This document shows, one piece after another, positions 25,736 through 64,000 of a stretch of DNA of 64,000 nucleotides (its first letter is position 1; each line of letters begins with the position of its first letter). The stretch lies in the sequence record MK295205; one strand, given 5' to 3'. Under the pieces are notes generated by a model, which was given only the letters and a program-made list of their open reading frames with translations, had not been told where the DNA came from and did no database searches. Source of the DNA: Shigella phage vB_SflM_004. A program made the translations under genes and the position numbers.

Positions 25736-25747
25736 AGTTTCTCTCTC

Positions 25748-26585: not shown

Positions 26586-26906
26586 TTACTGAGCTACTTT
26601 CAAGATGCTTGTGAATGAGATTTCACTCTCATCCATAAACTCTTTTGCTTCTCCAGTAACTTTTACAAAGTTATCTAGGCAGATAATCTTCTTATCTTTC
26701 TTGCTGTAGGTTAACTTAACCTTTTCAATATCTTTCTTAGGGCTTACCTCTTCATTGAAGAGTTTTACAGCCTCTTTGAATGGTAGATATGAGCCGTCAT
26801 TGTCACTGATGAATCCTGTACCACAGTAGTAGTAGTTATACTCTTTAGCCATAAACTGGCACAGTACGAAAATCTGTAATTTACGAGTGTTATAAACTTT
26901 GCTCAT
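26586..26906 (-). CDS. hypothetical protein
   Basis: 106-aa ORF with GAAGG RBS. Confidence 0.45.
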   Translation of the reverse strand: MSKVYNTRKLQIFVLCQFMAKEYNYYYCGTGFISDNDGSYLPFKEAVKLFNEEVSPKKDIEKVKLTYSKKDKKIICLDNFVKVTGEAKEFMDESEISFTSILKVAQ

Positions 26907-26908
26907 GA

Positions 26909-27166
26909 TTATTTAGCCTTCTTGTTACGTTTACGGTTACGAGCTTTCTTAGCTGCCCGTTTAATAGCTGCTGCACCAGTTGGTCGATGCGCTTGTTTTT
27001 TACCACCTTTGCCACGGCCTACATAGATACTTTTCATAATCTCATTAGCCAGCTTCTCATCCATCTTGAAGTTTTGCATGAGATGAGTCACATCAACACC
27101 AGTGAGCATACCTAGTGATGCCAGTGCTGCTTTTACTTTTGATTTAAAACTGTTCCAGAGTCCCAT
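26909..27166 (-). CDS. hypothetical protein with strongly basic C-terminal tail
   Basis: 85 aa; tail AAAIKRAAKKARNRKRNKKAK. Confidence 0.4.
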   Translation of the reverse strand: MGLWNSFKSKVKAALASLGMLTGVDVTHLMQNFKMDEKLANEIMKSIYVGRGKGGKKQAHRPTGAAAIKRAAKKARNRKRNKKAK

Positions 27167-27921: not shown

Positions 27922-27981
27922 ATGGTCGAATCTCCATGTAATTCATCTAGTTACCTCACCAATATTATTTAATTGTTTTAC

Positions 27982-28377
27982 TCATTCAAACACTACCTGA
28001 CAAGGAACCTGTTTAGTAATAAATTCTTCACAGTGTTCTTTAATGAAGTTTTGTAATGGCACACAGTCTTGTGCGCAAGTCATTAGCATAATGTACTCTG
28101 GATTCATGATATTTTCAAGACTGTAGAAGACAACATCACCAGATAGTTCGTGACCATCTTCTTCAGACCAAGTTCCAGTGACTACAGCTAATTTGTCAAG
28201 CAATTCATTAGGCAATGCTACACCGTCTTCTACGGAGTCACTTAGAACGTTGTCGCTGATGTACAATGTGAAGACCGTGTGGAATGTTGAGTATCTTACG
28301 TGATTCTTTTCGCAAGAGCCACACTCTGAGGCATAATCTTTAATCCACTCTAACTGTTTTTGGTTCAACTTAATCAT
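27982..28377 (-). CDS. hypothetical protein
   Basis: 131-aa ORF with AAGGTGA RBS. Confidence 0.45.
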   Translation of the reverse strand: MIKLNQKQLEWIKDYASECGSCEKNHVRYSTFHTVFTLYISDNVLSDSVEDGVALPNELLDKLAVVTGTWSEEDGHELSGDVVFYSLENIMNPEYIMLMTCAQDCVPLQNFIKEHCEEFITKQVPCQVVFE

Positions 28378-28420
28378 AATTTCACCTTAGTTGGTAATGC
28401 ACTGAATGCTATAGCTAACC

Positions 28421-28693
28421 CTAAGAATGGTTTGAAGCATGACCATAAATCCATATTGTTTGGTTGTTATCACAAACATACAGGTACTCTGTCCCGATTT
28501 GTGGGACGATGATTGTAGTGTTGCCTGATATGACTGTCATATAGTATAGGTAATTTCTACTCTGTGACGTTTGCTGACCATGATATGAGAAACCCCATTG
28601 TGGGTCTGAAAAACCCCACACCATAACACTAGCCCCAAAGAAGAAGACTAGAATATGTAGTATGTATATCAACGTTTTTGGTATTTTAAACAT
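28421..28693 (-). CDS. hypothetical membrane protein
   Basis: 90 aa; N-terminal hydrophobic helix LIYILHILVFFFGASVMVWGF. Confidence 0.4.
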   Translation of the reverse strand: MFKIPKTLIYILHILVFFFGASVMVWGFSDPQWGFSYHGQQTSQSRNYLYYMTVISGNTTIIVPQIGTEYLYVCDNNQTIWIYGHASNHS

Positions 28694-28847
28694 TTTAACT
28701 TATCTCTCAATTCACAATAAGAGAGTCCTAAAAAGAACCCTAGTAAGACAGAACCTATGAACAATCCAATAATATTCTCTGCCATATCTAACATCCAATA
28801 AAAAAGGTGATGTAAGCTTATCAAGACCCACATCACCTTGTCAAGTT

Positions 28848-36780: not shown

Positions 36781-37278
36781 TCAAGCACAGTTTGCTTTCA
36801 TTACCTTATGGATTCTTTTTTCAGCATCTTCATAAGTTTCTTTAGTAATAAACTTAATTGCTGCAATATTGGCATTGTAGAAGAGTCTGAGCTTAGAGTC
36901 AATCCTTTTTGTCATTACATCGAATTTATGTTGAAGGTTTGCTTCACCATAAACTAGACCACCTTTTGTGTAGTAGGTTTGAATAATGTAAAAGTCAAAA
37001 AACTCTTTTCCAAAACTCTCAATATCTTTTTTAATATACTCAGAAGAAGTCTCATAAGTCATCCAATCACTTTCCTTAGTGACTACCTTCTTCCGAGTCT
37101 TACCAGCAACTTTTCTTTTGGTCACACTATTAAGCTGTTTCTTTCCAATATAGTATTGTCCGGTTTTCTTACAGTGTACTAAATAGACAAAACCAAAATG
37201 TTTAGTGGGGTCAACTTCCCCACATAAAGATACCCAATGACCATAGGTGGGACAATTGCCAAATCCTTTAATCTTCAT
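36781..37278 (-). CDS. GIY-YIG-like domain protein (possible homing endonuclease)
   Basis: FGFVYLVHCKKTGQYYIGKK resembles the GIY...YIG core; adjacent to an HNH endonuclease. Confidence 0.4.
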   Translation of the reverse strand: MKIKGFGNCPTYGHWVSLCGEVDPTKHFGFVYLVHCKKTGQYYIGKKQLNSVTKRKVAGKTRKKVVTKESDWMTYETSSEYIKKDIESFGKEFFDFYIIQTYYTKGGLVYGEANLQHKFDVMTKRIDSKLRLFYNANIAAIKFITKETYEDAEKRIHKVMKANCA

Positions 37279-37774
37279 TCATACACGGCTCCTGATTTGT
37301 GAACTCTCTGTGAAGTTCTTCTCTTTTCTTTCTAATTGCTTCTTTGGCATCATCAACGTTATCAAACAGACCAAGGAAATGTGTTACACCGTGAACCATA
37401 ATCCTTGCTCTCCACTTCTGTGAAGCTTTGTTGAATGATACACCTTTTACACCAGATGTATTGTTGGAGTGTATTTTTCTATTCCAACAATTTTCAGCTT
37501 GAGTGCAAACTCTCAAGTTCATTCTTCGGTTGTCATCAGTAATTCCGTTACGATGGTCTACACGGTCTGGTAAGAACCCCTCTGTGTAAAGAATGGCTAA
37601 ATCATGAGCCATGTATGATTTTCTCTTTATGGTAATCCTGATATAACCCCTTTTATGGGGTGTTCCAGCAACTGAACCAATGACTGTCCTATTAGCCGAT
37701 TTCTTCAACCAAGTAAAGACCCCTGTTTCGGGGTCATAATGAAGATACTCTTTAAGTGTCTGCTGAGTCAACAT
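37268..37774 (-). CDS. HNH homing endonuclease (HNH + AP2-like domain)
   Basis: 168 aa; YDPETGVFTW, VDHRNGITDDNRRMNL HNH core, GVKGVSF...ARI AP2-like. Confidence 0.75.
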   Translation of the reverse strand: MLTQQTLKEYLHYDPETGVFTWLKKSANRTVIGSVAGTPHKRGYIRITIKRKSYMAHDLAILYTEGFLPDRVDHRNGITDDNRRMNLRVCTQAENCWNRKIHSNNTSGVKGVSFNKASQKWRARIMVHGVTHFLGLFDNVDDAKEAIRKKREELHREFTNQEPCMNED

Positions 37775-44678: not shown

Positions 44679-47378
44679 ATGGAAAACGTAGATTTTAAAA
44701 ACTTACATTTAGTTGGTGATACAGAAACTGATGGTTTACTCCTTGAGTTCACTAAAGTGCACGTAATGGCTTTCGCAGACTATAAATCTGACGATGAAGA
44801 GCCACCTGTATGGGTCTTTACAGATGAGCCTATCCTCGGTCACAAATACACTAAGTACATCAAAGGTGGTTTACGTGAAGGTATTGAGTTTGCGTTAAAG
44901 GCAAAACGACTTTGCATCCACAATGGTCTAGGGTATGACTGGTGGGTTTTCAATCACATTGCACCTGATTTGTGGAACTTTGATAATCCAAAGTGTAAGC
45001 CGTGGAGTAACTTCTTTCAGGATTCTCTTATCCAGTCTCGTGTTCAGTGGATGGATAGACCAACTCCAAAAGGTTATAAAGGTGCTCATGGCTTGGCAGC
45101 ATGGGGTGCTCGTGTTGGTGTCCGTAAACCAGAGATTGAGCATTGGGGTGTGTGGAATGCAGAAATCTTCACTCGTGTTGTAGAAGATATCCGTATTAAC
45201 GCCAAAACTAAACGTGCACTGGATAATGAATATCTGAAGCTAAAGAAGTGTGGTATAGACACTTATGAAACCTATATGCGAGCTAAAGAAACATCTTTCT
45301 GGATGAGTCAACAAGCTATCAATGGTTGGAAAGCTGATAAAGAGCTTATGGAGTTCCATGTAAAGGAACTTGACAAGTTGACCAATGAGCTTGCTTCAGA
45401 AGTTGAACCACATCTTCCTCCAACTATTAAGACTAAAGGTAAAGTTACTGGAGAAGAGTTTGCAAAAGCTTGGAATGAGTATGTTGAAACATTCGGTCAT
45501 GCAGATGGACTGAAGAGAATTACCAAGTACCCTAAGACGAAGTACCGTCAGCAGGTACGTAACGGTGAGATGCAGACATATGAAATCAAGCCATTTGGTA
45601 AACCAACTACAAAGATTTTTAACATTGAAAAGAGAAATTGCTATACACCAACCAACTCTGTAACTGGTGAAGAGTACAAGGAAGGTTTTGTAGCAATGAA
45701 GGATGCTCGTGCAATTTGCAATGAGTTGAATGCAAAGATTGGTAAGAAATGCAAAGACTGGAAGCCAGTAAAAACAGTTAAAACTGTGAAGTACTATAAT
45801 AGTCATGTTGTTAATCACTTTGAACTGGAGTCAAGTCGCTACACAGGATTGATTGATGCACCATATACACCAATTGAGTTTGAAGTTTCTCGTATGACTC
45901 AGGTAGCAGTTGTTAAAGACTACTTAAAATCAGTTGGTTGGATTCCAGATGACTGGAACTACAAGAAAGACTCAGATGGTCGCCCTGTAAAAGTTTGCCG
46001 TTTCAAAGACAACAAAAAGATGATTACAAAACATCCTAAGTGGCAGGAGATGGTTGAACGGTGTGGCTTGAGTTATGTTGAACATGAAGGTGTCCAGTAC
46101 ATTGAACATAACTGGTCTGTGAAGAAGTACACAGATTTGCTTGAGCCTTGCTTAATCCGTACTTCACCAAAACTTACTGAATCATCTTATGATACGATTG
46201 AAGGTGAGCTTGGACAGAAGATTGCTAAATACTATACTTTGATGCACCGACGCAGAACTATTGAGAACTCAAAGGATGATGAGAAAGGTTGGCTAAACCA
46301 GATTCGTCCAGATGGTCGCCTTAGTGCTGGTGCAATGGTGTTTGGTACTTCAACTGGACGTATGACACAATACGGTATTGTAAACGTACCGTCTGGTGCT
46401 GCTGTCTATGGGGAACCAATGAGGGCAGTGTGGATTTGTGAAGAAGGTACTAACGTTGTCTCTGTAGACATGAACTCAGCCCAGCTAGTTCTCCTTTGTA
46501 ACTTTATGGGTGACAAAGACTTCACCAAAGCGGTAACGCAAGGTAAAGAAGAGATTGAGTTTATTCGTCAAGAAGATGGACGCTATTACTGCAAACACTT
46601 TGATGAGTACCTCAATCCAGATATTGATAAGTACCTTCGCTATGACTCTGAGAATGACCTGTACGTTGTCTATTCAGGGACTGATGCACACACACTGAAC
46701 AGTATTTACTTTAGCTTGAATGATGAGCAGGATATCTTGACTTGTCGAGCTACTCAGGATGAGAACCTTCTCCATGAGATTAGCAAGGGTCGTAAGAAAG
46801 CTAAGAATGGTATCTATGCACTGCTGTTCGGTGCAGGTGATGAGAAGTTTGCTAAGACAATTAAAGCTGCAACTACTCAGGAAGGTGCACTGACTAAACA
46901 GACTTACTTTATTCGTTTGCCTAAAATTAAGAAGCTGCTGGATGACTTGGAAGCTGACTACAAAGCAACTAAAAAGGCACTTGAAGAGGTATTTGGTAAG
47001 ACTGCTGCAATATCTAAAGGGGGTTTTGTAAAGGTTGCTGGAGCTTGGTTGTGGTGTAAATCTCCACATAAGTTGTTGAATTATTTGCTCATGGGTTCAG
47101 AGGCTCAGATTCAAAATGAGGCAATTAACCTTGCTTGTAGAAGAGCATGTGAAGAAGGGTTGACAAAATTAAATGGACGAAAACCAGCAATTGGTGCTAG
47201 GCTTTTGCTGGCATACCACGATGAAAACAGTTGGGAATGCCCAGAAAGTATGACTCAAGAAGTTAAAGCCATAACTGACTGGATGTATGGTCAGGCATCT
47301 AAGAATTTAGGTTTGAAGAGTGAGACGCTTGTAACTGGCACAGGTAAGGTTGGTAAGAGCTGGTTGGAAGTACATTGA
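44679..47378 (+). CDS. DNA polymerase, family A, with 3-prime-5-prime exonuclease domain
   Basis: ORF 44649-47378; best start ATG 44679 after GAGGGAG RBS; Exo I motif VGDTETDG; motif C YHDE; canonical PolA C-terminus ...GKSWLEVH. Confidence 0.9.
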   Translation: MENVDFKNLHLVGDTETDGLLLEFTKVHVMAFADYKSDDEEPPVWVFTDEPILGHKYTKYIKGGLREGIEFALKAKRLCIHNGLGYDWWVFNHIAPDLWNFDNPKCKPWSNFFQDSLIQSRVQWMDRPTPKGYKGAHGLAAWGARVGVRKPEIEHWGVWNAEIFTRVVEDIRINAKTKRALDNEYLKLKKCGIDTYETYMRAKETSFWMSQQAINGWKADKELMEFHVKELDKLTNELASEVEPHLPPTIKTKGKVTGEEFAKAWNEYVETFGHADGLKRITKYPKTKYRQQVRNGEMQTYEIKPFGKPTTKIFNIEKRNCYTPTNSVTGEEYKEGFVAMKDARAICNELNAKIGKKCKDWKPVKTVKTVKYYNSHVVNHFELESSRYTGLIDAPYTPIEFEVSRMTQVAVVKDYLKSVGWIPDDWNYKKDSDGRPVKVCRFKDNKKMITKHPKWQEMVERCGLSYVEHEGVQYIEHNWSVKKYTDLLEPCLIRTSPKLTESSYDTIEGELGQKIAKYYTLMHRRRTIENSKDDEKGWLNQIRPDGRLSAGAMVFGTSTGRMTQYGIVNVPSGAAVYGEPMRAVWICEEGTNVVSVDMNSAQLVLLCNFMGDKDFTKAVTQGKEEIEFIRQEDGRYYCKHFDEYLNPDIDKYLRYDSENDLYVVYSGTDAHTLNSIYFSLNDEQDILTCRATQDENLLHEISKGRKKAKNGIYALLFGAGDEKFAKTIKAATTQEGALTKQTYFIRLPKIKKLLDDLEADYKATKKALEEVFGKTAAISKGGFVKVAGAWLWCKSPHKLLNYLLMGSEAQIQNEAINLACRRACEEGLTKLNGRKPAIGARLLLAYHDENSWECPESMTQEVKAITDWMYGQASKNLGLKSETLVTGTGKVGKSWLEVH

Positions 47379-47634
47379 TGGTGTTGAAATGATGCTCATG
47401 GAAGAGTACCTTATACTATATATTGTATAGGAGACTTGTATGACTATTTCAGAAATTGAAGTTCAACTGCAATGTGCTGGATATTCTCAAAGTGAGATTG
47501 AGGCTATGTGCATCATCATTTGCAGTAGCCATAAGCACCTCAAGCTTTCCAGAAATTCGTCTTAAGGTTGATATTTTTATTGCTGGAGGTAAGATTATCA
47601 AGGATAAGACAGGCTACCTTAAAGGTGAACGTCT

Positions 47635-47844
47635 ATGAGCCATCGTGGAAGAACTCATCTTGCCATGATGCAAGGTGCTTCAAAAGAGACTATCAAGAAT
47701 CGGAAGAAAACTCTTTTTGACAGAATGAATAGACTCATTGATAATGCAAGCCTACCTAACTCTGAAAAGGTTTTCTTGAAAGGGAATCTGAAGAGTATTG
47801 CACAGGAACTTATTGACATTGAATTTTGGAGACACCAAAAATGA
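47635..47844 (+). CDS. hypothetical small protein (cassette ORF1)
   Basis: 69 aa (MSHRGRTHLAMMQGASKETIKNRKK...). Confidence 0.4.
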   Translation: MSHRGRTHLAMMQGASKETIKNRKKTLFDRMNRLIDNASLPNSEKVFLKGNLKSIAQELIDIEFWRHQK

Positions 47845-48092
47845 CATACGCAGACGTTATTCAGCAACTTCACGACAACTGCTATACCCCAGAGTTGATT
47901 CAGGAGATGTGTATTGTAGTGATGCCTAGCAAGTTCGTAAAAGCCTTTAGAAATGAAAATTTCACATCTGATGAGTTCTTTGAAATAAAAGACGGAAAGG
48001 TTGTATGTGAAATGGGTTACCCAATGGCTGCATGGTACAAGGGGGAACCTTGGCAGAAAACTGGATGGAGTATCTTTAATGAAACTTTATAG
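47826..48092 (+). CDS. hypothetical small protein (cassette ORF2)
   Basis: 88 aa (MTYADVIQQL...[11 protein letters not shown]...). Confidence 0.4.
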   Translation: METPKMTYADVIQQLHDNCYTPELIQEMCIVVMPSKFVKAFRNENFTSDEFFEIKDGKVVCEMGYPMAAWYKGEPWQKTGWSIFNETL

Positions 48093-48888
48093 CATTTGGG
48101 GAAGAGTTGGTGAAGGTTATGACTGGACTCTTCTTAAAACAAATGTTAAAAGTAACGAGATAGCTTACTACAAAATCTATTACCATAAAACTTTTAGAGA
48201 GGTAGAGTATCGTGAGCAATAAAGAGCAAGAAGCTTTAGCAATCTTCAAGAGCGAAGACAAATCAATAGCTATTGGACTACGACCCCGAAACAGGGGTCA
48301 GACTATCAATGGTACTTAGATTTGTGTAAAATGAAATCTGTAGAGCCAGTTGATGAAACCCGATTCAAAGAACTGTATAATATCTGCCAAGAGGGTTATG
48401 AAGAACATTACGAAGGTTCTTTGAATCCTGTAAATTCAAAAGCTTCAGACTTATTTTACTTGGAAGTTTAGAGAGAGTAGTCCTACTGGTTGGATGTAAC
48501 CCTTCTTATGAGAATAAGGATGCTTCTTACAGACTTCCTCCGGTATCACGAGGCAATAAGAACTTCAACTCTCGTGCCATTAGCAGGGATGTTATTGTAG
48601 TTCGCTGCCCAAATTCTCAAGACTACTACTTCTTACAAGTATGGAAAGAATAGTCAGTCACATACTACTGTTTTTGATTGAGGATATTAATATGCAGGTT
48701 CTTGTAAATTTTATCTATAAGTATGAAAACATCTTCAGTAACATGACTGTAGCACAACGTAATCCTGTTATACCACGAGAAGGAAAAAAGGCAGGAAATT
48801 ATAGTTGGAACTACAAAGTTGAAGAAGTCAAACACAAATTCAAAGATGGTTATGACCACCAAGTTGTAAATGTGTATTTAAAAGGTAA

Positions 48889-49284
48889 GTGGCAATGAGT
48901 GAAAAAAGGTTATTCAAAGAGTCCTACAGTAATCTGAAGATGGGTTATCAAGGCTACTCAATACCTTGGTATGAAGATAAGAAAAAACAGTATTCAAACC
49001 CTTTTATATATCAACCTGTAAAACTCTCTGTACTGGAGTTTTGGCATGAAACTGGAGCTACGCCATACCAATTTGACAACATGGAATATGCGCGTATTTG
49101 TAAAAGTCTTGGTGCAAGACAAGTTGATAATATCATTGAACATTTGAAGGATTTGTATAAAGATTTTGCTGGATACTTATACGAGAAACAGTTTGGGGAG
49201 TGCTTAAAATACCCAGATGGGCACTCGTTTTTCACAAAAGGTTGTCTTAATGGTAACATAAAAATTGCATACAAAGGCTTGTGA
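48889..49284 (+). CDS. hypothetical protein
   Basis: 131-aa ORF. Confidence 0.4.
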   Translation: MAMSEKRLFKESYSNLKMGYQGYSIPWYEDKKKQYSNPFIYQPVKLSVLEFWHETGATPYQFDNMEYARICKSLGARQVDNIIEHLKDLYKDFAGYLYEKQFGECLKYPDGHSFFTKGCLNGNIKIAYKGL

Positions 49285-49379
49285 GGCACGTAATATGATT
49301 TTTATACTAGATTGAGACTACCATACCCAGATAGCTCCTTTTCCTTATCTAGCAATGCAATGACGCACTCTGGGAATAT

Positions 49380-50001
49380 TGTTTCTGTTGAAAAATGATA
49401 AACACAGATGGTCACAAGTCTGTTCAGTTATTGCTTGATGGTAAAGGCTACCAAGCTAACCGTCTAGCAATACTATATGTGGATGGATACCTGCCTGATA
49501 AAACCTTAGAGCGTAATGCTGAACAGCAAGCTCCAGGTTGACCATAAGAATGGAGATGGTTGGGACAATAGGTCCAAGATAAGTCATAAGAAATATTTGA
49601 AGTTCCCTGCTGACGCTCAACTTAAATTTAAGGGTTTCGTTGCAGGATTTCAAGAGATGCTGACTCAGAAAGCTTTTACAGCATATTCTCGTGAGAACAC
49701 GGTATACAACATTCCTATAGAGTTGATTCCTGATGTTCTTCTTATGCTGAAACTGCACAAAGATGTTGAGGATTTCGATGGTGAGATTTATGCTCATGGT
49801 TGGGACTTAGAAGATATTGTTTCGATGATTAAGAATGCTGACAATCCAGACCGTCACCTTCTTAAATTCTACTGGTATGATATCTGTGACAAGACTAAAT
49901 CTTGGCCTGAGCGTCGTGAAGTTTCACCATTGTACAGCTTCACAAAACTCTTGCAATCGGTCAAGAAAGAAAACTCCTTCAACGAGTGTTGTCACCGTTA
50001 A
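49380..50001 (+). pseudogene. HNH endonuclease remnant (frame-disrupted)
   Basis: Frame a reads ...GKGYQANRLAILYVDGYLPDK...APG then stop; frame b continues VDHKNGDGWDNR (HNH core); a matching N-terminal fragment LLDYDPETGV lies ~1.1 kb upstream at ~48270. Confidence 0.5.
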
Positions 50002-50369
50002 TACTCCGGGATTAAGCAAGATGCACGGGGGGGGGGTTAAATTAAAGTAACTGGTGTCAAAACTGATAAACGTGGTCATGGTAAGTTCGTTGTAGAGACT
50101 CTTCCTAACGTCCCTATCTGGGTTGCCAAAAGGTGTACAGAAGATAAGTAAAAGCCCTGAAGAGTTTATCGGGAAACCTTTAACTGTTCAGTTCCAGAAG
50201 ATGAGTTTCGAGCAATGATACGTTTATTATCATTGGCTTACTTCACAAGTAAACTCTTAAGTATAACATACAAAGCCAAGGTAAAAACTATCATCTTGGT
50301 ATGTTTGACACACCGTAACTGACTTAGAAAATTTGGTGAGTATACTGAGCATCATAAACCAACGGGTAC

Positions 50370-53213: not shown

Positions 53214-53554
53214 TATGAAACGTGAAAATGCAATCTTTAACGATAACTTTGCAATTGGCTTCTATGGTAAACCAACTCCGGCAGAGAAGCTTTATGGTAA
53301 TGCAATTCTGGAGACCTTGAAAGAGGTTTAAGAGCTGGTATGAGGTACATTGATGCAAACCGTGTAAGAGGTTATATGGCAATTGGCTCTGCAATCTCTA
53401 ACATTAAGCTGGAGACTACCAGTGCTAAGAAGGTACGAGACCACTTCATCAAAGAGTTGTCAGAGATTGTGGATGGTGTTGATATCAAGGCTGTCTGGTT
53501 AGATGTTGAAGGTCACAACTACACCACTTTTGTATTTAAAAATGAGGATATCAA

Positions 53555-53947
53555 ATGTCTCTTCCCTTAAAACTTGATTTATACTTTGGTTACAGTGTAT
53601 TACAGGGTAGCATACTTTCACTACCAAAGTCAGATTACCGTTGTGATTTAGGTTCTGTGAAACGTGCATCACACATGAACAGCAACATTTTAGGCTTGCA
53701 GACACTTCACAGGTGGCTTGAGGAAGATGGGCATTTGAATGAGTATCTTCACCAACTCGAACTAGCCAAAGAAGAAGGGCATATGGGTTGGGATTTACTA
53801 CCCCATCTGTACAAACCTGCAAGCCCTATGGAGATACGCTATAACGAACAAGCGATTGATAGTTATAACAAATATAATATAACTATTGGCTTAAAATCTT
53901 GGTTAGATTATGACAAATCATTATACAGACCATTGGAAAGCGTGTAG
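53555..53947 (+). CDS. hypothetical protein
   Basis: 130-aa ORF. Confidence 0.35.
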   Translation: MSLPLKLDLYFGYSVLQGSILSLPKSDYRCDLGSVKRASHMNSNILGLQTLHRWLEEDGHLNEYLHQLELAKEEGHMGWDLLPHLYKPASPMEIRYNEQAIDSYNKYNITIGLKSWLDYDKSLYRPLESV

Positions 53948-54069
53948 CAAAAGGTATTGCTTATGATGAAAAGGTTGACTGGAATACACAAAAGTGTATA
54001 AAATTCTTCAAGTACGATAATGACAAAGATACTTTTGTAGAGGTTTAACATGAAAATTGGAATTACCCT

Positions 54070-54381
54070 TTGCCAGCCCGAAACAGGGGTCTTAACATTA
54101 TGAAAGCTACAAATCATACTGAGAAGACATTCTTGATTGATACAAACTATGATGCAGGAACTATTGAGTTCATTGATGAAGACACTGCTGATTCCTTGTG
54201 TGTTCTTCCTGCTCACTTATTTACTCCAGAGCTACGTGAGAGTCGTTCTATTGAAGTTAATCTTGAGCCAAGTATTGAACTGTACTCAGATACACAGTAT
54301 CCAAGAAGTTTTAAAGGATTGGCAGACCTCCACATAGTAGTAGGATGGTTATTGGAAGCCAAGCCGGAGGTGGTCATGTAG
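54070..54381 (+). CDS. hypothetical protein
   Basis: 103-aa ORF. Confidence 0.35.
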   Translation: MPARNRGLNIMKATNHTEKTFLIDTNYDAGTIEFIDEDTADSLCVLPAHLFTPELRESRSIEVNLEPSIELYSDTQYPRSFKGLADLHIVVGWLLEAKPEVVM

Positions 54382-54813
54382 TAACTGCTGAGTGTGAACA
54401 AGGCACTATCAAGCTGACAGGTGATTTTGGTTCTATGAGTTTCTTAGACTTTGTTCCAAAACACTTTGAAGACTTCCTGTCAAGTGAAGTTGATGACCTT
54501 GATTTCATACTAAAATTTGAACGCACTTTTAAGGTAAACAAAAAATGAAAATCTTAAGCGGAGTATCACAGTGTTACATGAATGATGGTGAGCCAGTTAA
54601 ATGCTGCCATTGTGGAGGTGAGAACTTCCAAGGTGAAGTTTCAGAGATTGTCTCTGGCAATATCAATTAAGCGCACAAGGTCTGGTGTGTATATGCACAC
54701 ATTTTATCTTTTTGGGCTTATGGAAGTTATGAACCACAACCCCACCTTATTTACCATCCAAACAGGATTGTGAAGCGTGTTCTGAACTGGTTCATTATCA
54801 AAGGATTTACAAA

Positions 54814-55253
54814 ATGATTAAGTTAATTTTTGCAAGTGGTATTAACGGGGAGTTTGGCACAGCTACTGGAATGCCTTGGCCTCGTAATAAACAGATTTTA
54901 GGAAGCAGACTGTTAACCAGTTAGTCTTGATGGGTAGCGAAACTTGGAAGACTCTTGGGAGCAAGCCTTTGCCAAACCGTGAGAACATTGTCTTGACAAA
55001 CTCTCTTGACTTTTATGGTCTGGATTTTAAAGATGACTCTCATTGTAAAGCAAGAGTTAAGCCTGAAGCTTTTGGGGCTTTCCTGAAGTATATTGATAGC
55101 TCTATTGATGAAGATGTTTTAGTAATCGGTGGAGCCAATATCTTAATCTCAGCTTTGCCGTATGCTGACGTAGTTTTCCACAGCGTCATTCAGGAAGTTA
55201 CAGGACAGGTAATCACCGAATTGCTTGGTGGGTTTCTTCCAGTACTTGTATGA
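54814..55253 (+). CDS. frd: dihydrofolate reductase, with an apparent -1 frameshift near 54880-54900
   Basis: N-terminal MIKLIFASGINGEFGTATGMPWP in one frame, then DFRKQTVNQLVLMGSETWKTLGSKPLPNRENIVLT...VIGGANILISALPYAD in another; AAGGA RBS. Confidence 0.7.
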
Positions 55254-56237
55254 CACAGATTTATTTGCTAAAGTACAGTCCAAACCTCTGGATGACAGGT
55301 AAGTGGCCTGACAAACACATTGACCACAAAGAAGAGGGCTTTTCTAATATGTCACAAGCAGATGTAAGCTACAAAGCTATTTTAAACCATGTTTTATCAG
55401 TTGGTGAGTTGCGTAAAACCAGAACTGGCTCAGTGATTTCTACCTTTGCTCCACCTGAGTTCCGTTTTGATATGCGTAGTGGATTTCCATTAATCACCTC
55501 AAAACAAACGTTTATGCGTCAAGTCCTCGGTGAAGCATTATGGTTTATGAACGGTGAAAACCAACTAGGCCATTTGCGTTACAGAACTTGGGGGGAGAAT
55601 GACGGAGAGCGTTGGACTATCTGGACAGATGATTTTAAACGTTGGTTGAAAACAACCTATGCTACAGAGAATGATTGGCTGGAGGACGCTGGAGGAAGAA
55701 TCTATGGAGTCCAATGGAGAGCCTACGAAGGTCATGGTGGAGTTGTTGGAGATGGTTTGAATAACGCTTGGGACAATCTAAGAGAGGCCACAAAAGAACA
55801 GAACATGTCTAATAACGCATGGAATGCAGCAGATATATCAAGTAACTCTATGGCATTAGCACCTTGCCATGTACTTTTTCAGATTTACATCTCGAACACT
55901 AATGAGGTAGATTTGAAATGGTATCAGCGCTCTTGTGATACGTTCTTAGGATTACCATTTAACATTGCTTCCTATGCCTTTATCTTGGAAGTGTTGTGTA
56001 AACTGACGGGGTATACACCGCGATATCTGATTGGTACTTATGGTGATACTCAAATCTATCAGAACCATATGTCGCAGGTTTTTCAGCTTCTTGGTAATGG
56101 AGACAACCTAGAACATCAATCAAGATTTGAAGTCTCTTGAAGACTTGAGACATATGACAGCAGATGACTTCCTAGGTGGGTTGAAAGGGTATAAACATGC
56201 TGGTAAGATTGAAGCACCTTTATCAGTAGGTAAGTAA
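55250..56237 (+). CDS. td: thymidylate synthase, with an apparent +1 frameshift near 56110
   Basis: MALAPCHVLFQIY (catalytic Cys), RSCDTFLGLPFNIASYAF, YGVQWRAY; the C-terminal ...DDFLGGLKGYKHAGKIEAPLSV continues in another frame after the ORF stop at 56140; true start may be the internal ATG at ~55349. Confidence 0.75.
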
Positions 56238-56334
56238 AAACTTAAAAGGTACAAGTAGAAGCAAGTCTGGTAAGTTGTTCTGTAATTGCTTGCAAAGCTG
56301 ATATGGATAGCCCAGATTAACCATAACGGCAAGA

Positions 56335-56622
56335 CTATACATATAGGAACATACACAACTTTGCGTTCTCACCCTTAACATTCTCTAGCTGAACTTTCTG
56401 GTTCTCCATCCCTAATTGTAGGAGCTTCATATCAGATTGTAAATCACGAATAGCTGAATAGTTACCTTTTGAGTAACTATCCAACTGTTGTAACTTTGTG
56501 TTGATAGAAACTTCTTGCTTTCCGTCAGAGACCTGCATCGTAGTGTACATACCAATTACACTGAAAATACCTACAACGATTGCACCAATATTGTTCTTGA
56601 AAGCATCTTCTAACCACTTCAT
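56335..56622 (-). CDS. hypothetical membrane protein
   Basis: 95 aa; TM helix IGAIVVGIFSVIGMYTT then coiled coil; a 59-aa TM mini-ORF lies upstream at ~56635-56812. Confidence 0.4.
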   Translation of the reverse strand: MKWLEDAFKNNIGAIVVGIFSVIGMYTTMQVSDGKQEVSINTKLQQLDSYSKGNYSAIRDLQSDMKLLQLGMENQKVQLENVKGENAKLCMFLYV

Positions 56623-56887
56623 TATTTCTCACCTTTAAAAGCCTTTTCCAAGGTATCAACAAATTCATCATCAATAGGTGTATCTGTTTTACTCGCAAGG
56701 TATCTTGCAAGCTTAAAGAACACTTTTTCAATCATGTATTCACTGAGAAGAGGAAGAAGAAGCCCATAAAGTTTCATGAGGATTGCTAGAATGGTCGGCA
56801 TTTAATCACCTTACTTCTTGAGCCAAGATGGTGAGAATACCTATTAAGAAATATTAACACCATCTTGTCAGTTAGTCAACAAGGTAA

Positions 56888-57844
56888 TTAAGCAGTTTTT
56901 ACCCAAGCCATTAATTTAATAAAGGCGTTAGTAACATCAAATGCTGCACCAGAACCTGTACCACCAGTTGTACCACTTAATGTGTGGGCATGAGCACCAA
57001 TTGTCACAGTGTGTGTATGGTCACCTACCCAACTTGTTCTCCCTGTCCAAGTTCTTGATGCGTAGAAGTTAACTGGTGTACCATAAGTGAACTGTGAACC
57101 AGTATAACCTCTAGAGGCTTGCGATGACATCTTACTACCACCTGCACCAGTCCCGTTCCATCTTACTGTGAAGCTGCTATTTGCAACATTATGGGCGTGA
57201 CCACCCGCACCAGAGATTTCCATGTTACCTCTGTCATGGTCGTGAGCACCTTGAGCGTCTGTGTACTTAGTACCATAATCAAAGGTAGTGGTTGTTCCAG
57301 AGAAGCTGTGAGTATGACTTGGAAGATGACCTACAGCAATACTCTTAGAGTCTGAGCCACCTACAGAACCAACATCCTCACCAGTTGAAGAGGCAATTCT
57401 AATAGTTCTGAACTGACCATTTGATAGGTAAGCCCAAGTAGTTCCTGCAAATGCTGTATTAGGGTTTACATTCGATGCAAAGAACGTTACCATACCAACT
57501 GGATAGATTTTGTTAAGGTCTGTTGAGTTAGAAATAGCTGTTGCAATCTTCTGGTCAGTCTCTGCTTTAGTGTAAGCTCCAACATCTCCAGCAGAAGGTT
57601 TCTGTGCTTCCGTGAAAGTGTTGTAATCAATTACCACATAACCATCAACCGCATTAGCTGGCTTAGTAGATGACACAGTAGGAGCAGAATGGACAGTAAT
57701 AACTGCACCATTGTTGTAGTTAAATTTAAACTGTGCAGTCGGTGTAGATGTACAAACTCCACGCATCATAGTTATCTCCACCAACTGAAACAGTACATAC
57801 ATCAACACCAACACCACTATCTGTACTTCTGTAAAGAACAGCAT
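56888..57844 (-). CDS. tail fibre protein (His-rich distal/receptor-binding type); N-terminal limit uncertain
   Basis: HxH repeats (GHLPSHTHS, GDHTHTVTIGAHAHT) and C-terminus ...AFIKLMAWVKTA paralogous to the end of ORF 59486-60481. Confidence 0.5.
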   Translation of the reverse strand: MLFFTEVQIVVLVLMYVLFQLVEITMMRGVCTSTPTAQFKFNYNNGAVITVHSAPTVSSTKPANAVDGYVVIDYNTFTEAQKPSAGDVGAYTKAETDQKIATAISNSTDLNKIYPVGMVTFFASNVNPNTAFAGTTWAYLSNGQFRTIRIASSTGEDVGSVGGSDSKSIAVGHLPSHTHSFSGTTTTFDYGTKYTDAQGAHDHDRGNMEISGAGGHAHNVANSSFTVRWNGTGAGGSKMSSQASRGYTGSQFTYGTPVNFYASRTWTGRTSWVGDHTHTVTIGAHAHTLSGTTGGTGSGAAFDVTNAFIKLMAWVKTA

Positions 57845-57899
57845 TTAGACCCGATGGGTTTGCATTTCCACTTCTCAATACTAGTTCATTTTTGCAAAA

Positions 57900-59440
57900 C
57901 TAAGTTGAACCAACGTTGAAACCTGTACCACCATAGAGTCTTAAAGTTGCTGTTGATGGTGTTTGTGGCATTGTTACAGTAGCAATTTTCACCCAACCAC
58001 TGTCATAAGTTGTTGCATTCATAGCAGTAGCTCTTGAGAATACAGTATTAGCAACACTTTGTGTGTAGTACCTTGCATCAAAGTTAGATACATCTGTAGG
58101 GATAACTTGACCTTCAACTCTTAAAGGTTTATTGAGATAAGCTACATCCCTTAACTCTAGATATGTATTCACTGACAAGGTGCTCAGGGAAGAGTACCTT
58201 AGTCTGCTACCTTCACCGTTACCAACATACCAACGTCGCATCAGTACTATCTTTTGCAATAACCCCGTTGCTATTCATTGGCTGGGTAGCTGTCCCACTT
58301 TGCAATGTGAAAGCAGCATCTGTAGTAACAATAGTTTGAGCACCTGTGAAAGTGTTTGCAGAGTTATTTCTTGCAAGACTACTTAATAAAGAGCTTACAA
58401 TATCTTATATAGGAGGACTTATGAGCCACCGTGGAAGAACCCATGCAGCGATGATGAAAGGTGCTTCAAAGGAGACACCAGATGAGTAGAGTCTCATAGT
58501 TGCACCTGTCATCTGGTTAAACAAGTTAACATCCTGCTTAGTCCCATCAGGTTGACCAAGATACCAAGACTCTGAACCAGAACCTGCGTAGGCTTGAACA
58601 AATACTGCACCGTTTGCTGTAGCTGGTTTCAATCTAAGCAAAGACCCATCAGAAATAATTGTCTGATAGTTTGTGAAGTTGTTTGCACCTGAGAAGGTAT
58701 TATTTTCAGTTAGTCTTGCAAATCTTTGGTCAGCAGCTATCAAAAATCGTAAGCAGAAGTTGTTTGAGAGAATGAACAGGTTAATTGACAATTCATCTCT
58801 TTCAGGTTCTGAGAAGGTTTTTAACTAGGGAACCGGTCTTGTTGTTGTAGAAAATAACATCGTCACTTCCGAATCATTACCTACATACCACCTATTAGCT
58901 CCAGTACTATCCTGGCTACAATAGCGGAGTATGCCTCACTTGCACCAGCAGGGGTCTTCAGTGTCATAGCTTCACCATTTGCTTGAATAACTTGTTGGGA
59001 GGTAAAGATGTTATTTGCAGCTAGTCTTGAGTATCTTGCATCATTTTCCTCATTTGTTCTCATACCTAATTCATTAGGAGATGGTTTATTAAGTGTGTGA
59101 TAAACTGTTGCAGACCTTGAAGCATCTGCAATAGTTAGTCTAAGACCGTTTGAGTTAATTTTAAATCTTGAAAGGTAATCTGAAAAGCATTGCACAAGAA
59201 CTTGTAGAATAAATCTTTTCCACCGTAAGTTAACTTAACAATACCCAGATTACCTGTCATATTCCCGCCAGCTAATTGCAAGAATCTTTCAAGTCTGAAT
59301 GAAGCTAAGAAATTTGCATAGGTCATTTTACGGTCTTCATCACCTAGCATATCAGACCTTTTAATTACTCTCAAATGTAATAGGTCGTCTGAGCGAACTG
59401 TATCAATTGTGTTTAGTTCACTTAGTTTGTATTCAGCCAT
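57900..59440 (-). pseudogene. tail-fibre repeat region broken into at least four ORFs, with embedded cassette fragments
   Basis: ORFs 57900-58259, 58405-58791, 58881-59195 and 59135-59440 carry tail-fibre-like repeats (RL..NN.F.G.N.F...QTI); cassette-derived fragments at ~58394-58476, ~58738-58823 and ~59166-59207; frequent frame changes. Confidence 0.35.
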
Positions 59441-59485
59441 TTATCAATCCTCTTTATAGGGGCTGTGTAGCCCCTTTATAAATTT

Positions 59486-60481
59486 TTAAGCAACTCTCTT
59501 CCACACATAAACAACATAAGATGGTTGTTCAACACTGAAAGCTTGTCCACCACCAGATGCACCAGTTGTACCTGAGTGAGTGTGCTCAGAAGATTGAACT
59601 GTCACAGTACCACTGTGTGTATGTGAACCAATACCGACTGTGTGGCTGTGAGCACCAATACCGACTGTGTGGCTGTGGTCACCGGATGCACCAGATGTAA
59701 CATCTCCAATCGTCACAACGTGAGAGTGGTCACCTGCCCCATAAGTTGGTTGTGACGCATTACCAACACCTGCATCAGCCGTTGCCGTAATAGCATTCAC
59801 ACCACGTCCACCAACGTTCTGTACAAGAGCTTGGTGAGTGTGATTGCCAGAGTTGTTTGTATTCCTTGAACCATAGTCAAAAGTACTGGTATACTTAGTT
59901 CCATAGTCAAAGTCACTTGTAGATTTTGTACCATAATCAAACACACTCGTTGTCTTATTTCCGTGGTCGAAACTTGAAGCTGACGCACTATTACCATGCG
60001 TGTGTCCACCACCAGTTAACAATACAGAGTGTGTGTGACTTGGAATGTTATTTTGAGAAAGTGCTACAGATGCACTACCAAAATTAGTTTCAACTGGTCT
60101 TGTGTCAGAATCATAACCAACTAATGCTCTACCTTTAGAGACAAGTTCCCAAGTACCACCACAAAGTAAATATGTAGATGGGTTTGCAGGGTTAACTGAC
60201 AAATGGATAGTACCAATTGGGTAACTATTCTGGATAGCTCTATAAAGAGCATTCACAGCTTTTGCAGTAGCATACTTATCAGCATCTTCAGAGTAAGAGT
60301 TTGAATAAGTCCAGTATTGAATATTGGAGACATCTACCTGAATCTTGTTAGTATTGTGAGGGTTGTTCTTATCATTGATGTGGTTCTGAATAAGAGTATT
60401 AACTTCATCACTTGATAGAATATTAAGGTTCTGCCTAGCCTCTTCAACACTAACCACGTCTGACAAGTTATTAGCAGCCAT
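59486..60481 (-). CDS. tail fibre protein (His-rich)
   Basis: 331 aa; repeated HTH/HSH motifs (GDHSHVVTIG, GDHSHTVGIGAHSHTVGIGSHTHSG); conserved C-terminus ...YVVYVWKRVA. Confidence 0.6.
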   Translation of the reverse strand: MAANNLSDVVSVEEARQNLNILSSDEVNTLIQNHINDKNNPHNTNKIQVDVSNIQYWTYSNSYSEDADKYATAKAVNALYRAIQNSYPIGTIHLSVNPANPSTYLLCGGTWELVSKGRALVGYDSDTRPVETNFGSASVALSQNNIPSHTHSVLLTGGGHTHGNSASASSFDHGNKTTSVFDYGTKSTSDFDYGTKYTSTFDYGSRNTNNSGNHTHQALVQNVGGRGVNAITATADAGVGNASQPTYGAGDHSHVVTIGDVTSGASGDHSHTVGIGAHSHTVGIGSHTHSGTVTVQSSEHTHSGTTGASGGGQAFSVEQPSYVVYVWKRVA

Positions 60482-60677
60482 TAATTGGAGTGCGTTAACA
60501 ACATTACCAAGTTCTACGTGAACCTTTGTAACGCCGTGTGGGTTATTTCTTAAAGATGCGTGTGGAGCAAGTAATTGCTCAAGTGTGCAACGCTTATCCT
60601 CAAAAAAATGACACTTGTGTCAATAGGTAAAGAGGCTTGAGGCAATGCACTAATTTGAATTTCACCAACTGCCATTA

Positions 60678-62061
60678 TTAGCTCCCTTTATATTCGTATG
60701 TGTAAAGGTTAGTCGTGCTAGTGGGTGCAGTTCCTGTTACTGTGTCAATTAATTCCCAACCATTGGAAACTAAATCAGGTTGCTCCGTAGCAAATGAACG
60801 AACCTCTCCAACCGTACCATTTACTTTGTTAAGCAAATAGTTAATAATATAGTTAAACCACTGGCGACCCATAGGCTCTCCCCTTAATAGGCCAGTGGCT
60901 TGAATTTCTGGAGGTGGTAATACTTTAAGCTGGTTACTCCCTTCTTGTTGTGATTTATCTTTTCTACCTTTGACGATTTGAGCAACTTCTGCCATAATAC
61001 CATAATCGCCACCAGTTACCATTTCTTTACCAGCAATAAAATAGTCACTGCTATTGTTTGTCTTGCTGACTTTCATATAATCTTTACTGGTACTTCCACC
61101 AGTTTTGTCAACTCTAAAGTAACCATCCCTAATACCAGCATCTGCAAAGCTACCAAGCTTGTTAGCCTCCAGAGAACCACCTGTGTTGTTCGTAATAAGA
61201 CCCTTGTTAGTGTCTGTAACAAACCAGTTGTTGTTCTCATCAGTAATTGCCAGACGTTATTCAGCAACTTCTACAGGAGTCCACGCAGTACCATTTAGCG
61301 TAATATCTCTTATGATAACTGCTACACTAATAGTTGCCAGAGTTAATTCAGGAGATGTGTATGCTGTATCTACAACGTTGTTTCGAGTGTTTACACGAAC
61401 AACAATACCACCCGTCATAGGTGTGATATGTTCAAAGATTTGACTAAACGTTGCATTGTAGTGATGCCTAGCAAGTTCGTAAAAGCCTTTAACAGTGACA
61501 CTTTAAGGTCTGCACCAAATGCACGAATACCAGCAGGTTTTGTGTCCCAGATTGCTTGTGCGATGTTAACATTCTTATTGTTGAAAGAAGAAGCCCATAA
61601 AGCTTACTGTGAAGCCCATCATAATTTGTAGTCTCTGTGTCGTTCTCTACACCAGAAGCATCAGATACACCTTGAACCCTCTTGACAGCAGCTACAATAG
61701 CATCTAAAGTACCTACACCAGTAACGGCTAAGGATTCTAGATAACGCTGTCTAAGTTCTGTATCAGTTTCTTCGTTACGACCTGCTGTTAAATCGTATCT
61801 GTTAAATACCCCATCAAGACCATCTACAGTCGTTTCAATCTCAATAAAAACTCCACGGAGAGTTTGCAAAACTCCAGTTTCTTCAGCTACAACGTCACTA
61901 ATTGATACAATCTTTGTAAATGTTAGGAAGGTCGTTGCAGTTACAACCATAGGGTTTGTTCTTGCAATGATATCTCCAGTATCTTTATAGATTCTCAGAA
62001 GAGAACCGTCATTGATGACTTCAGCTTTTGCTGCAATACCACCATTGATAGAGTCTGCCAA
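60678..62061 (-). pseudogene. virion structural (baseplate/tail-fibre-like) coding region, fragmented
   Basis: ORFs 60678-61076 and 61489-62061 separated by frame breaks; cassette fragments at ~61251-61272, ~61336-61362 and ~61451-61512. Confidence 0.3.
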
Positions 62062-62117
62062 GTGTTGTAACAGAGTCGTAATGGTATCTGAGCTTGTAGG
62101 ATGGTAAGAGTACTAAG

Positions 62118-62650
62118 TTGACAAGGTGCCCTTATACAATATCTTATATAGGAGGGCTTATGAGCCACCGTGGAAGAACCCATGCAGCGATGATGAAAGG
62201 TGCTTCAAAGGAGACTATCAAGAATCGTAAGCAGAAGTATTTCAAATGTGGTGTCATCTGTTGTTACTTTATTCTTTTGAGATGTTTGAGAGAATGAACA
62301 GGCTAATTGACAATTCATCTCTTTCAGGTTCTGAGAAGGTTTTCTTGAAAGGTAATCTGAAAAGCATTGCACAAGAACTTATTGACATTGAGTATTGGAG
62401 ACATCAAAAATGACACTTGCAGACGTTATTCAGCTCCAGAGTTAATTCAGGAATGTCCATTGTAGTCATGCCTAGCAAGTTCGTAAAAACCTTTAACAAC
62501 GACGCTTTAAGGTCTACACACATCCTTATCGTGATTGCAAAAGACCGTACTGGAGTACTCAAAGGTGAACGTATTGATATTCTGGAGTCTGGGGAAGTGT
62601 TGGTAAAGGTTTTGACTGGACACTTCTTCGTGATTCCTTAAAAGTTCTGG
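62118..62650 (+). repeat. small-gene cassette, copy 2 (promoter-like leader, ORF1 with a 46-nt insertion, ORF2 variant)
   Basis: ttgacaaggtgcccttatacaatatcttatataggagggcttATG leader; MSHRGRTHAAMMKGASKETIKNRKQK... reading frame; ORF 62417-62641. Confidence 0.6.
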
Positions 62651-62658
62651 TATAAAAA

Positions 62659-62690
62659 CACAAAAGGGGAAGACCTTTTACAGTCTCCCC
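62659..62690 (-). terminator. rho-independent terminator
   Basis: Minus strand GGGGAGACtgtaaaagGTCTTCCCC followed by TTTTGTGTTTTT, after ORF 62740-63144. Confidence 0.45.
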
Positions 62691-62739
62691 CTTATTAGGA
62701 TTTGTCAAACGTTAAACGTAGTGATTGTTGAAGTGTAGT

Positions 62740-63144
62740 CTAACTTCTCACAACCAAAAATCCAAGTTTTAGAGTTCTGGTCACGTCCAAGTTCAATCTG
62801 TGGAAGCTCTTGCAACCAAGCATTATTACCAGAACTGAACCGGATGGGTCATAAATTACGAAGTTAGATGAAATGTCTTCTTCAAGTTCCATGTCATCTT
62901 GTTTAGCTTGAATTGCAGAAAGCATCTGGTTAGATAGAGAAGTCTGCATTAGCTCAATCTCAATCGTACCTGTTTTATCTGCGTTTCTTGTCAGAGCTAC
63001 TTGACCACCTGCACCTACAACTGGCGTAACAAGTGGAGAAGTTCTCTGAAGACGTAAGAATGAGTCTGGTGCAAAACCTTCAATGGCAATGCCATTCCAG
63101 CTACAAACTACATCTTTAGGGGAATATTGCTGATACATAGCCAT
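62740..63144 (-). CDS. putative virion structural protein
   Basis: 134-aa ORF in the structural block; no specific motif. Confidence 0.35.
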   Translation of the reverse strand: MAMYQQYSPKDVVCSWNGIAIEGFAPDSFLRLQRTSPLVTPVVGAGGQVALTRNADKTGTIEIELMQTSLSNQMLSAIQAKQDDMELEEDISSNFVIYDPSGSVLVIMLGCKSFHRLNLDVTRTLKLGFLVVRS

Positions 63145-63159
63145 TCCTATTTACTCCTA

Positions 63160-63468
63160 TTATTCGTAAGCCACTGTGCCTTTCAAGTCCACATCCAAGA
63201 TTGCCCCTGCTAAGATACCGTGGAAGGTAATGTCTTTCAGGATACGAGCTTTCTTATCTGCAAGTGATACTTGTGAGGCTTTAGGAACAGTAACGGTATA
63301 AGTAGACAAAAAGTTTCTGTTAACTGCTCTCTGAAGAGATGTTTCAATGACCTGACGAACACGAGTAATACCTGTATCATCATAAGTAATCTTACCACCC
63401 TTCTGATTAATTAGCAAGTCTCTTAGAGAAGTTTTCAAGTCTGATTCAAGCCAATCGACATCACTCAT
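63160..63468 (-). CDS. putative virion structural protein
   Basis: 102-aa ORF; 3-nt gap to the upstream ORF, so possibly one frame-broken gene. Confidence 0.35.
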   Translation of the reverse strand: MSDVDWLESDLKTSLRDLLINQKGGKITYDDTGITRVRQVIETSLQRAVNRNFLSTYTVTVPKASQVSLADKKARILKDITFHGILAGAILDVDLKGTVAYE

Positions 63469-63471
63469 TAT

Positions 63472-63816
63472 TTAAAAACATACACCACCAGAAGTGATAC
63501 CTCTACGCACTACGAGAGGTAGACTATCGTGAACAATAAGGTTACAGCTACGTGCATCAAGTGCTGACTTCTGAATGCTTGTCAGAGGTCTCTTGTTAGC
63601 TGGCTGCATAGATGCTGCTACACCAGTTAACTGAGCATTACCCCAAGCAATAGAACCTGCATCGTATGGAGCACCATAAGCAATGTAAGCCATTTCTGGG
63701 TAGTCAAAGCTTGCTGTGTGATGCCATAGACATACTGTACGAGTGTACTTACTCTTAGAGAGTTGTGTGAAAGCAATGGTTGCAGAAGCCAGTTCAGTTC
63801 CTTGCAGAGCTTTCAT
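63472..63816 (-). CDS. putative virion structural protein
   Basis: 114-aa ORF in the same block. Confidence 0.35.
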   Translation of the reverse strand: MKALQGTELASATIAFTQLSKSKYTRTVCLWHHTASFDYPEMAYIAYGAPYDAGSIAWGNAQLTGVAASMQPANKRPLTSIQKSALDARSCNLIVHDSLPLVVRRGITSGGVCF

Positions 63817-64000
63817 GTCATTGCTTGCCTTGGAGTAATTTTTCTATCTGGCTGTAATCCCTCATTGCAGTAACGAACTGTGAAGTTCTGTCTTCAGTTG
63901 CAATAAAGTACCAATCAGTTGAGTACGTTTCAATTGCAGCCAGAGCTACAGAAGCACTATCAGCAGTTGTTGCAGAGATTGAAAGAGTCTGTGCAGTTGT

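Follow-up and report, generated by a model that had tools for sequence, protein, structure and literature searches.

Frame breaks in the frd and td genes of a Felix O1-like phage sequence coincide with ordered pieces of an endonuclease gene and point to an alignment-derived merge of genomes

The 64-kb window (the whole stretch of DNA that was analyzed) is the sequence of an Ounavirinae (Felix O1-like) phage, and at least its 47.4-64 kb part is very probably an in-silico, alignment-derived merge of several Ounavirinae genomes rather than the sequence of a single DNA molecule. The dihydrofolate reductase (frd) and thymidylate synthase (td) genes are broken there by short blocks in which the phage sequence was replaced by pieces of one endonuclease gene. 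The main value of this finding is that of a quality flag: gene, frameshift and pseudogene calls in the region of ~47.4-64 kb are unfit for biological interpretation, and nothing can be concluded on the folate or thymidylate metabolism of the phage. The same caution probably applies to the region of 1-4 kb.

The best matches to the frd-td region were found in Mooglevirus phages. The top one was Shigella phage Sf17 (93.5% over 94% of the query), whose record has an intact dihydrofolate reductase and an intact thymidylate synthase annotated. The frd gene has 546 nt and the td gene 900 nt in the Mooglevirus phages Sf17, Michonne and Moogle and in the Felixounavirus ULIM8, and in the four of them td starts one base past the frd stop. 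The lesions were mapped by a three-way DNA alignment. Once the five blocks that open Table 1 are excluded, 1237 of the 1246 bases in 54814-56237 are identical to those of Sf17 (99.3%), and the nine mismatches are located in tracts that match Moogle exactly. Gene order and overlap are the same as in the Mooglevirus frd-td operon (gp57/gp56 of Sf17; Citrobacter phages Moogle and Michonne), but in the window 178 nt of this operon are overwritten, 23 nt are missing and neither of the two open reading frames (ORFs) is intact.

Frame 0 from position 54814 reads MIKLIFASGINGEFGTATGMPWPRNKQ and ends at the stop codon 54922-54924, and DFRKQTVNQLVLMGSETWK... is read on in a different frame. The td frame terminates at 56140 with ...QLLGNGDNLEHQSRFEVS (also given as ...GNGDNLEHQSRFEVS), while the conserved C-terminus, DLKSLEDLRHMTADDFLGGLKGYKHAGKIEAPLSVGK, sits in a third frame. 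A previous sequence-only reading of this DNA had described the change of frame in frd and the loss of the td C-terminus to another frame, and the comparison with the orthologues bears out both, together with the net frame arithmetic (-1 in frd and +1 in td). That reading had taken the breaks for apparent single-base frameshifts. Sequencing or assembly errors of this kind, for example homopolymer miscalls in otherwise intact genes, would have the net effects that are seen, one base missing in frd and one extra in td. However, the length changes with respect to Sf17 are -10 nt (54891-54903), -2 nt and -11 nt (56099-56118), and they occur inside blocks of 13-31 nt that are dense in substitutions and are 97-100% identical to an unrelated endonuclease gene. 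All the indel columns between 54814 and 56237 are within the five blocks, there are none in the 1,246 flanking nt, and no change of one nucleotide with identical flanks was found in these genes. Single-base errors are virtually out of the question as the cause.

Table 1. Features of the window and their positions; donor coordinates are those of Salmonella phage Si3 unless another record is named
Feature	Position	Strand	Donor coordinates	Description
Endonuclease block	54891..54903	+	Si3 1880-1868	13 nt for 23 nt (-10); first frd frame break
Endonuclease block	55199..55229	+	Si3 1867-1837	31 nt for 33 nt (-2); second frd frame break; encodes ..RTGNHRIAW..
Endonuclease block	55287..55332	+	Si3 1836-1791	46 nt for 46 nt; over the frd 3'-end codons, adds a stop; encodes WMTGKWPDKHIDHK; best of 3,654 offsets
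Endonuclease block	55747..55814	+	Si3 1790-1723	68 nt for 68 nt, in frame in td; HNH motif DGDGLNNAWDNLREATKEQN; best of 3,632 offsets; exact IMG/VR match; Pfam HNH_3 fragment
Endonuclease block	56099..56118	+	Si3 1722-1703	20 nt; td 11 nt shorter than Sf17 here; td frame break
Seven upstream blocks	53329-53355, 53462-53474, 53669-53682, 53891-53914, 54077-54098, 54316-54369, 54664-54700	+	Si3 2071-1881	
Four downstream blocks	56236-56274, 56304-56359, 56752-56771, 57162-57181	+	Si3 1702-1568	
Donor series continued, Felixounavirus-type gp74-gp72 fragments	57891..63854	+	Si3 1552 to 859	scattered over tail-fibre and baseplate genes
frd remnant, Mooglevirus-type	54814..55347	+		534 nt versus 546 in Sf17; three frames, split by overwritten blocks; alignment to Sf17, Michonne and Moogle
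td remnant, Mooglevirus-type	55349..56237	+		889 nt versus 900; two overwrites, one in frame and one that shifts the frame
Second shredded donor, independent	47550..50314	+	IMGVR_UViG_3300045988_004931 2362-2809	post-polymerase HNH endonuclease allele, in order over the gp74-to-ligase region
Backbone switch, Felixounavirus-like (~10-47.4 kb) to Mooglevirus-like (47.4-64 kb)	47372..47393	.		at the DNA polymerase stop codon 47376-47378

The earlier account had two of the five lesions in frd-td and lacked the other three. These are the second frd shift (-2 nt at 55199-55229), the 46-nt overwrite with a premature stop at the 3' end of frd (55287-55332) and a 68-nt overwrite in td (55747-55814), which is in frame and changes VDQLSNLVEKMRKSPTDRYMLV into GDGLNNAWDNLREATKEQNMSN. 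The conserved Arg in the D-R-Y motif of td is replaced by Gln; we take this residue to align with R126 of E. coli ThyA, which binds the phosphate of dUMP. Homology as the source of the resemblance between VDQLSNLVEKMRKSPTDRYMLV and GDGLNNAWDNLREATKEQNMSN was considered and rejected, the resemblance being a by-product of best-similarity placement. In the Pfam searches, a 108-aa fragment of frd matched DHFR_1 (PF00186) at profile positions 41-118/159 (E 6.3e-12), and the match of the 296-aa td ORF to Thymidylat_synt (PF00303; E 1.8e-57) broke off at position 223/266 of the profile, and aa 167-186 of the same ORF were recognized as an embedded fragment of HNH_3. Neither PF00303 in td nor PF00186 in frd was found at full length by Pfam in the window; the Sf17 thymidylate synthase (TS) and dihydrofolate reductase (DHFR) proteins gave full-length matches.

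Programmed ribosomal frameshifting that restores full-length DHFR and TS, an option also named in the sequence-only reading, would be compatible with two adjacent genes that have one net frame change each. Its probability is negligible. In Sf17, Michonne, Moogle and ULIM8 each of the orthologues (546 and 900 nt) is read in a single uninterrupted frame, and the break is shared by none of the 134 matching phage records. An in-frame heptamer of the type X XXY YYZ, looked for at 54880-54924, is not present, and the sequence at the shift is derived from the endonuclease gene. Besides, one shift would not be enough for frd, which needs two and lacks its 3' end, and frameshifting would not restore proteins whose conserved residues have been overwritten. 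A slippery site together with a break conserved in the orthologues was thus not found in frd-td.

In IMG/VR, a single exact match was found for the 31-nt core of the td patch, within IMGVR_UViG_2974574300_000001 (84,419 nt), which is Salmonella phage Si3. The patches of the window are contiguous in Si3, where they tile a 171-aa ORF located directly 3' of the DNA polymerase gene (pol). Pfam finds an HNH_3 domain (E 1.3e-14) and an AP2 domain (E 2e-9) in this ORF, which is therefore a free-standing homing endonuclease. The same gene is contiguous with pol in at least 40 phage records (Ounavirinae; protein identity of at least 95%). When the 16 blocks between 53329 and 57181 are re-joined, they make up 504 nt with no indel and an uninterrupted frame. 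The re-joined sequence has 8 mismatches to Si3, 7 of them synonymous, and matches E. coli virus TH10 and Felixounavirus LF82P3 at 503/504 positions in a single ungapped match. The donor is therefore an intact natural endonuclease gene that is dispersed only in the window. The fragments belong to the same gene as the free-standing HNH endonuclease (HNH_3 + AP2) of Felixounavirus genomes (Si3, TH10, LF82P3, heid, ASO1A and others). In the real genomes, however, the gene is one 516-nt ORF right after pol, whereas in the window it is found as at least 16 pieces, 6-10 kb away from pol and over other genes. The pol gene of Si3 is itself split, with a 160-aa Endonuclease_7 ORF (Pfam E 9e-20) between its parts at Si3 2814-3296; the window lacks this additional insertion of a mobile endonuclease, which is seen only in the relative.

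The blocks were mapped by dynamic-programming alignment and by an exact-match scan against Si3. The 16 blocks, of 13-68 nt each, map in order to Si3 2071-1568, each starting at the donor base next to the end of the one before, so that every donor base is used exactly once. This is the ordered, exhaustive and non-overlapping partition of one contiguous donor that would be seen in an alignment-derived chimera. The seven upstream blocks (53329..54700) comprise the last pol codons and the 5' part of the endonuclease gene, and are written over small Mooglevirus genes. In the four downstream blocks (56236..57181) donor sequence takes the place of the td stop and terminator, of holin-gene sequence and of the first part of the tail-fibre region. 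A second and more compact copy of Si3 1605-1253 is present at 61585-62434.

Both frd and td are non-functional as written, the former with two shifts and a premature stop and the latter with no C-terminus and with the Arg of D-R-Y changed to Gln, which could be the outcome of a recent natural pseudogenisation in a real phage lineage, as had also been suggested. However, the scattered independent substitutions of a decaying pseudogene were not found in frd-td: outside the blocks there is 99.3% identity to Sf17, and the few differences match Moogle. All the lesions come from one endonuclease gene, in donor order, abutting and at the offsets of best similarity, a result that independent mutations cannot yield, and nearby essential genes (ligase, tail fibre and baseplate) are damaged likewise. 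Natural decay of the two genes is exceedingly unlikely.

Twelve blocks could be anchored in Sf17; six are equal in length to the stretch that they replace and the other six are shorter by 1-26 nt (two blocks had no flank anchor in the length comparison, and for 56099-56118 the value of -11 nt was taken from the frd-td alignments). Past each block the backbone continues in register, collinear with Sf17. The blocks are in-register replacements and not insertions, another property of an alignment-derived chimera. The six blocks of equal length were scored by their ungapped identity at all offsets across ~3.7 kb of the Sf17 backbone. Five of them are at the single best offset among ~3,650, and the sixth, of 13 nt, has five better ones. 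Identity between the blocks and the backbone that they displace is 48-79%, and the mean over offsets is 26%. A position that maximizes similarity, the third property of such a chimera, was thus found for five of the six blocks of equal length. The sequence shared at the junctions is 0-1 nt long on the donor side and does not exceed 6 nt on the backbone side, and the sequence that precedes each block is unlike the preceding bases of the donor. A junction-spanning 35-mer had no match in IMG/VR, the JGI metagenomes or the GTDB genomes, and none of the 134 matching phage records carried the patches. No record was found for the exact protein of either the td ORF or the 909-aa polymerase of the window. 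The patches were also considered as natural divergent alleles of another Mooglevirus. This was rejected, since they are carried by 0/134 records and match an unrelated gene.

Two other origins have to be weighed against these data. One is natural recombination (template switching during mixed infection, or gene conversion driven by the homing endonuclease) or a chimera that an assembler made from a mixture of strains, with no alignment step. It would agree with a backbone in which exact Moogle-like tracts take turns with exact Sf17-like ones, as long as 627 nt, with the switch of genus at the pol stop and with the divergent tandem alleles at 1.4-4.1 kb. Nonetheless, it is quite improbable: the sharing of 0-1 nt and at most 6 nt at the junctions is far under an assembler k-mer or a recombination substrate, and an ordered, exhaustive partition of a non-homologous donor at the best offsets is the output of an optimizer and not of independent crossovers. 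The Moogle/Sf17 alternation itself could come from natural recombination or from strain-switching by an assembler. The other origin, which we regard as highly improbable, is a generative sequence model that recited and mixed memorized Ounavirinae genomes. The window is without a match in the collections searched, known genomes appear in exact recitation that alternates with switches, a segment is duplicated and the quality drops late in the window, all of which such a model could produce. Yet the backbone is back in register after each block and the donor resumes at the exact next base, although the preceding context is unlike the preceding bases of the donor. Furthermore, placement maximizes the similarity to the overwritten sequence, something that an aligner does directly and that a left-to-right sampler has no reason to do.

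The td gene of phage T4 has a group I intron that carries the gene of the I-TevI endonuclease, a contiguous element that is spliced out and leaves td intact. In the window there is likewise endonuclease sequence inside a phage thymidylate synthase gene, but nothing is inserted: endonuclease fragments stand in the place of td bases one for one, and td cannot be restored. An endonuclease insertion of the intron or intein type, that is, a contiguous element with intact exon flanks, was not found in td or frd: relative to Sf17, frd-td has a net loss of 23 nt, the endonuclease pieces are separated from one another and part of the host sequence is gone.

The shredding of a gene into ordered blocks was reproduced with an aligner. 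A 22-kb segment of Sf17 starting from pol and a 4.1-kb fragment of TH10 (pol, the endonuclease gene and gp74 to gp72) were used as input. MAFFT FFT-NS-2 kept pol as one block and spread the remaining 1.2 kb over the 19 kb that follow, in 62 ordered blocks of 5-47 nt, a result that matches the kind of pattern and not the exact block positions. With G-INS-i on the same Sf17/TH10 pair there was no shredding; only FFT-NS-2 shredded. The pattern is thus reproducible by an aligner (MAFFT FFT-NS-2) and recurs in the window with an independent donor, the allele of IMGVR_UViG_3300045988_004931, as in an alignment-derived chimera. It resembles the over-alignment produced by progressive or FFT global aligners and followed by a consensus or reference-fill merge, in which a non-homologous insertion is likewise cut into ordered blocks of chance similarity. 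The difference from the general case is that in the window short gaps became deletions and backbone sequence fills the long ones. Polymerase slippage, basecalling error and mutation leave no pattern of this kind.

In the merge that we favor, related Ounavirinae genomes or fragments would have been globally aligned and then combined into one sequence by consensus or reference fill. Some of the Felixounavirus inputs would have had the HNH+AP2 endonuclease gene right after pol, with no counterpart in the Mooglevirus-type backbone, so that the aligner would have shredded this gene and a few following ones into ordered blocks of 13-68 nt. Each block would have been set where its resemblance to the backbone was by chance greatest. 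The merge step would then have overwritten the backbone with the blocks, dropping the short gaps and keeping backbone at the long ones. Three of the five frd/td blocks are shorter than the sequence that they replaced (by 10, 2 and 11 nt), which produces the apparent frameshifts. We infer such a pipeline from the observed donor, ordered partition, optimizer-type placement and MAFFT reproduction and from the second donor with the same pattern. Gaps of up to ~16 nt are deleted in the window, and those of at least ~28 nt are retained as backbone. A merge rule that takes the donor where present and otherwise the backbone was rejected, as it accounts neither for the short deletions nor for the polymerase region. 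The pol gene of the window is only ~94% identical to that of TH10 and a TH10-type donor therefore had no precedence in it, and the donor series begins at 53329 and not straight after pol. Given this gap handling, pol identity and start of the series, one has to assume several inputs and an unspecified merge rule. The window drew on no fewer than two Felixounavirus donors and two Mooglevirus-like sources.

The second donor is an allele of the post-polymerase HNH endonuclease (MITEIRLKELLDYDPETGVFTW...DHKNGDGWDNRYLNLR...) that is contiguous after pol in IMGVR_UViG_3300045988_004931. The ORFs of the DNA ligase, 48889-49284 and 49516-50001, are broken because this allele is shredded over 47550-50314. 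Past the pol stop, the backbone alternates between tracts that match Moogle exactly and tracts that match Sf17 exactly, up to 627 nt in length. The sequence-only reading had noted frame breaks clustered in 47-64 kb against clean long ORFs in 14-47 kb, and had taken the former as a regional problem of sequence quality or mosaicism. It was right in spirit, the region being composite, but not in the mechanisms that it offered (sequencing or assembly indels, pseudogenisation and programmed frameshifting). The genes of the left part are indeed full length in comparison with ULIM8, and the long alignment blocks of ~10-47.4 kb show ~95% identity to ULIM8 and ~94% to TH10. TH10 was considered as the source of the clean 15-47 kb and rejected, since its ~94% identity is no better than the ~95% of ULIM8. 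No single known genome was found behind the left arm among the two compared, TH10 and ULIM8.

The switch of backbone at 47372-47393 coincides with the insertion site of the endonuclease gene in donor-type genomes (many relatives), and could be either a boundary of the artefact or a real recombination hotspot. There is an outside chance that a real and so far undescribed Ounavirinae phage stands behind the artefact, with a left arm of the Felixounavirus type (~10-47.4 kb) and a right arm of the Mooglevirus type joined at the polymerase/endonuclease hotspot. Such a phage would be an intergeneric recombinant made at the endonuclease site, and the merge artefacts would come only from the overlay of other genomes. 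The one feature in its favor is the position of the switch. The stretch 48805-49400 is ~95% identical to another Mooglevirus subgroup (3HA14, ESh20, SFPB and Sf15), not to Sf17 or Moogle, and the backbone therefore comes from more than two Mooglevirus lineages.

Farther to the right, the Mooglevirus backbone skips ~0.7 kb at 61460-61514 and then ~6.5 kb at 62114-62624 (the second from Moogle 22743 to 29260). The ~6.5-kb skip comprises baseplate genes, the tape measure and a chaperone, so that essential genes are missing from the sequence as written. The Felixounavirus-type gp74-gp73 segment at 61585-62434 fills the Mooglevirus skip. At the opposite end of the window, the segments 1420-2658 and 2846-4087 are homologous, in tandem and 92.8% identical (86 mismatches and 2 gaps). 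Both correspond to ULIM8 82.7-84.1 kb, and each has a 154-aa and a 197-aa ORF. The pair has the look of two alleles of different genomes set next to each other and not of a natural duplication.

The features described in frd and td provide a reusable diagnostic of alignment-derived chimeras, namely short substituted blocks in register, which re-join to an intact foreign gene and lie each at the offset of best chance similarity.

Two intact ORFs of the clean region, 24354-24845 (-) of 163 aa and 37268-37774 (-) of 168 aa, correspond in ULIM8 to an 'HNH endonuclease motif containing protein', and both look like genuine contiguous free-standing homing endonucleases. Within the second one, 32 nt (37709-37740) are near-identical to the shredded endonuclease gene. 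The small early genes at 9320-13040 are accompanied by a family of direct repeats of ~90-105 nt with 80-99% identity (for example 9325-9417, 10455-10547, 12452-12556 and 12928-13021). Since Sf17 has matching repeats at 83.7-88.5 kb, the family probably belongs to these phages naturally, as an intergenic regulatory repeat.
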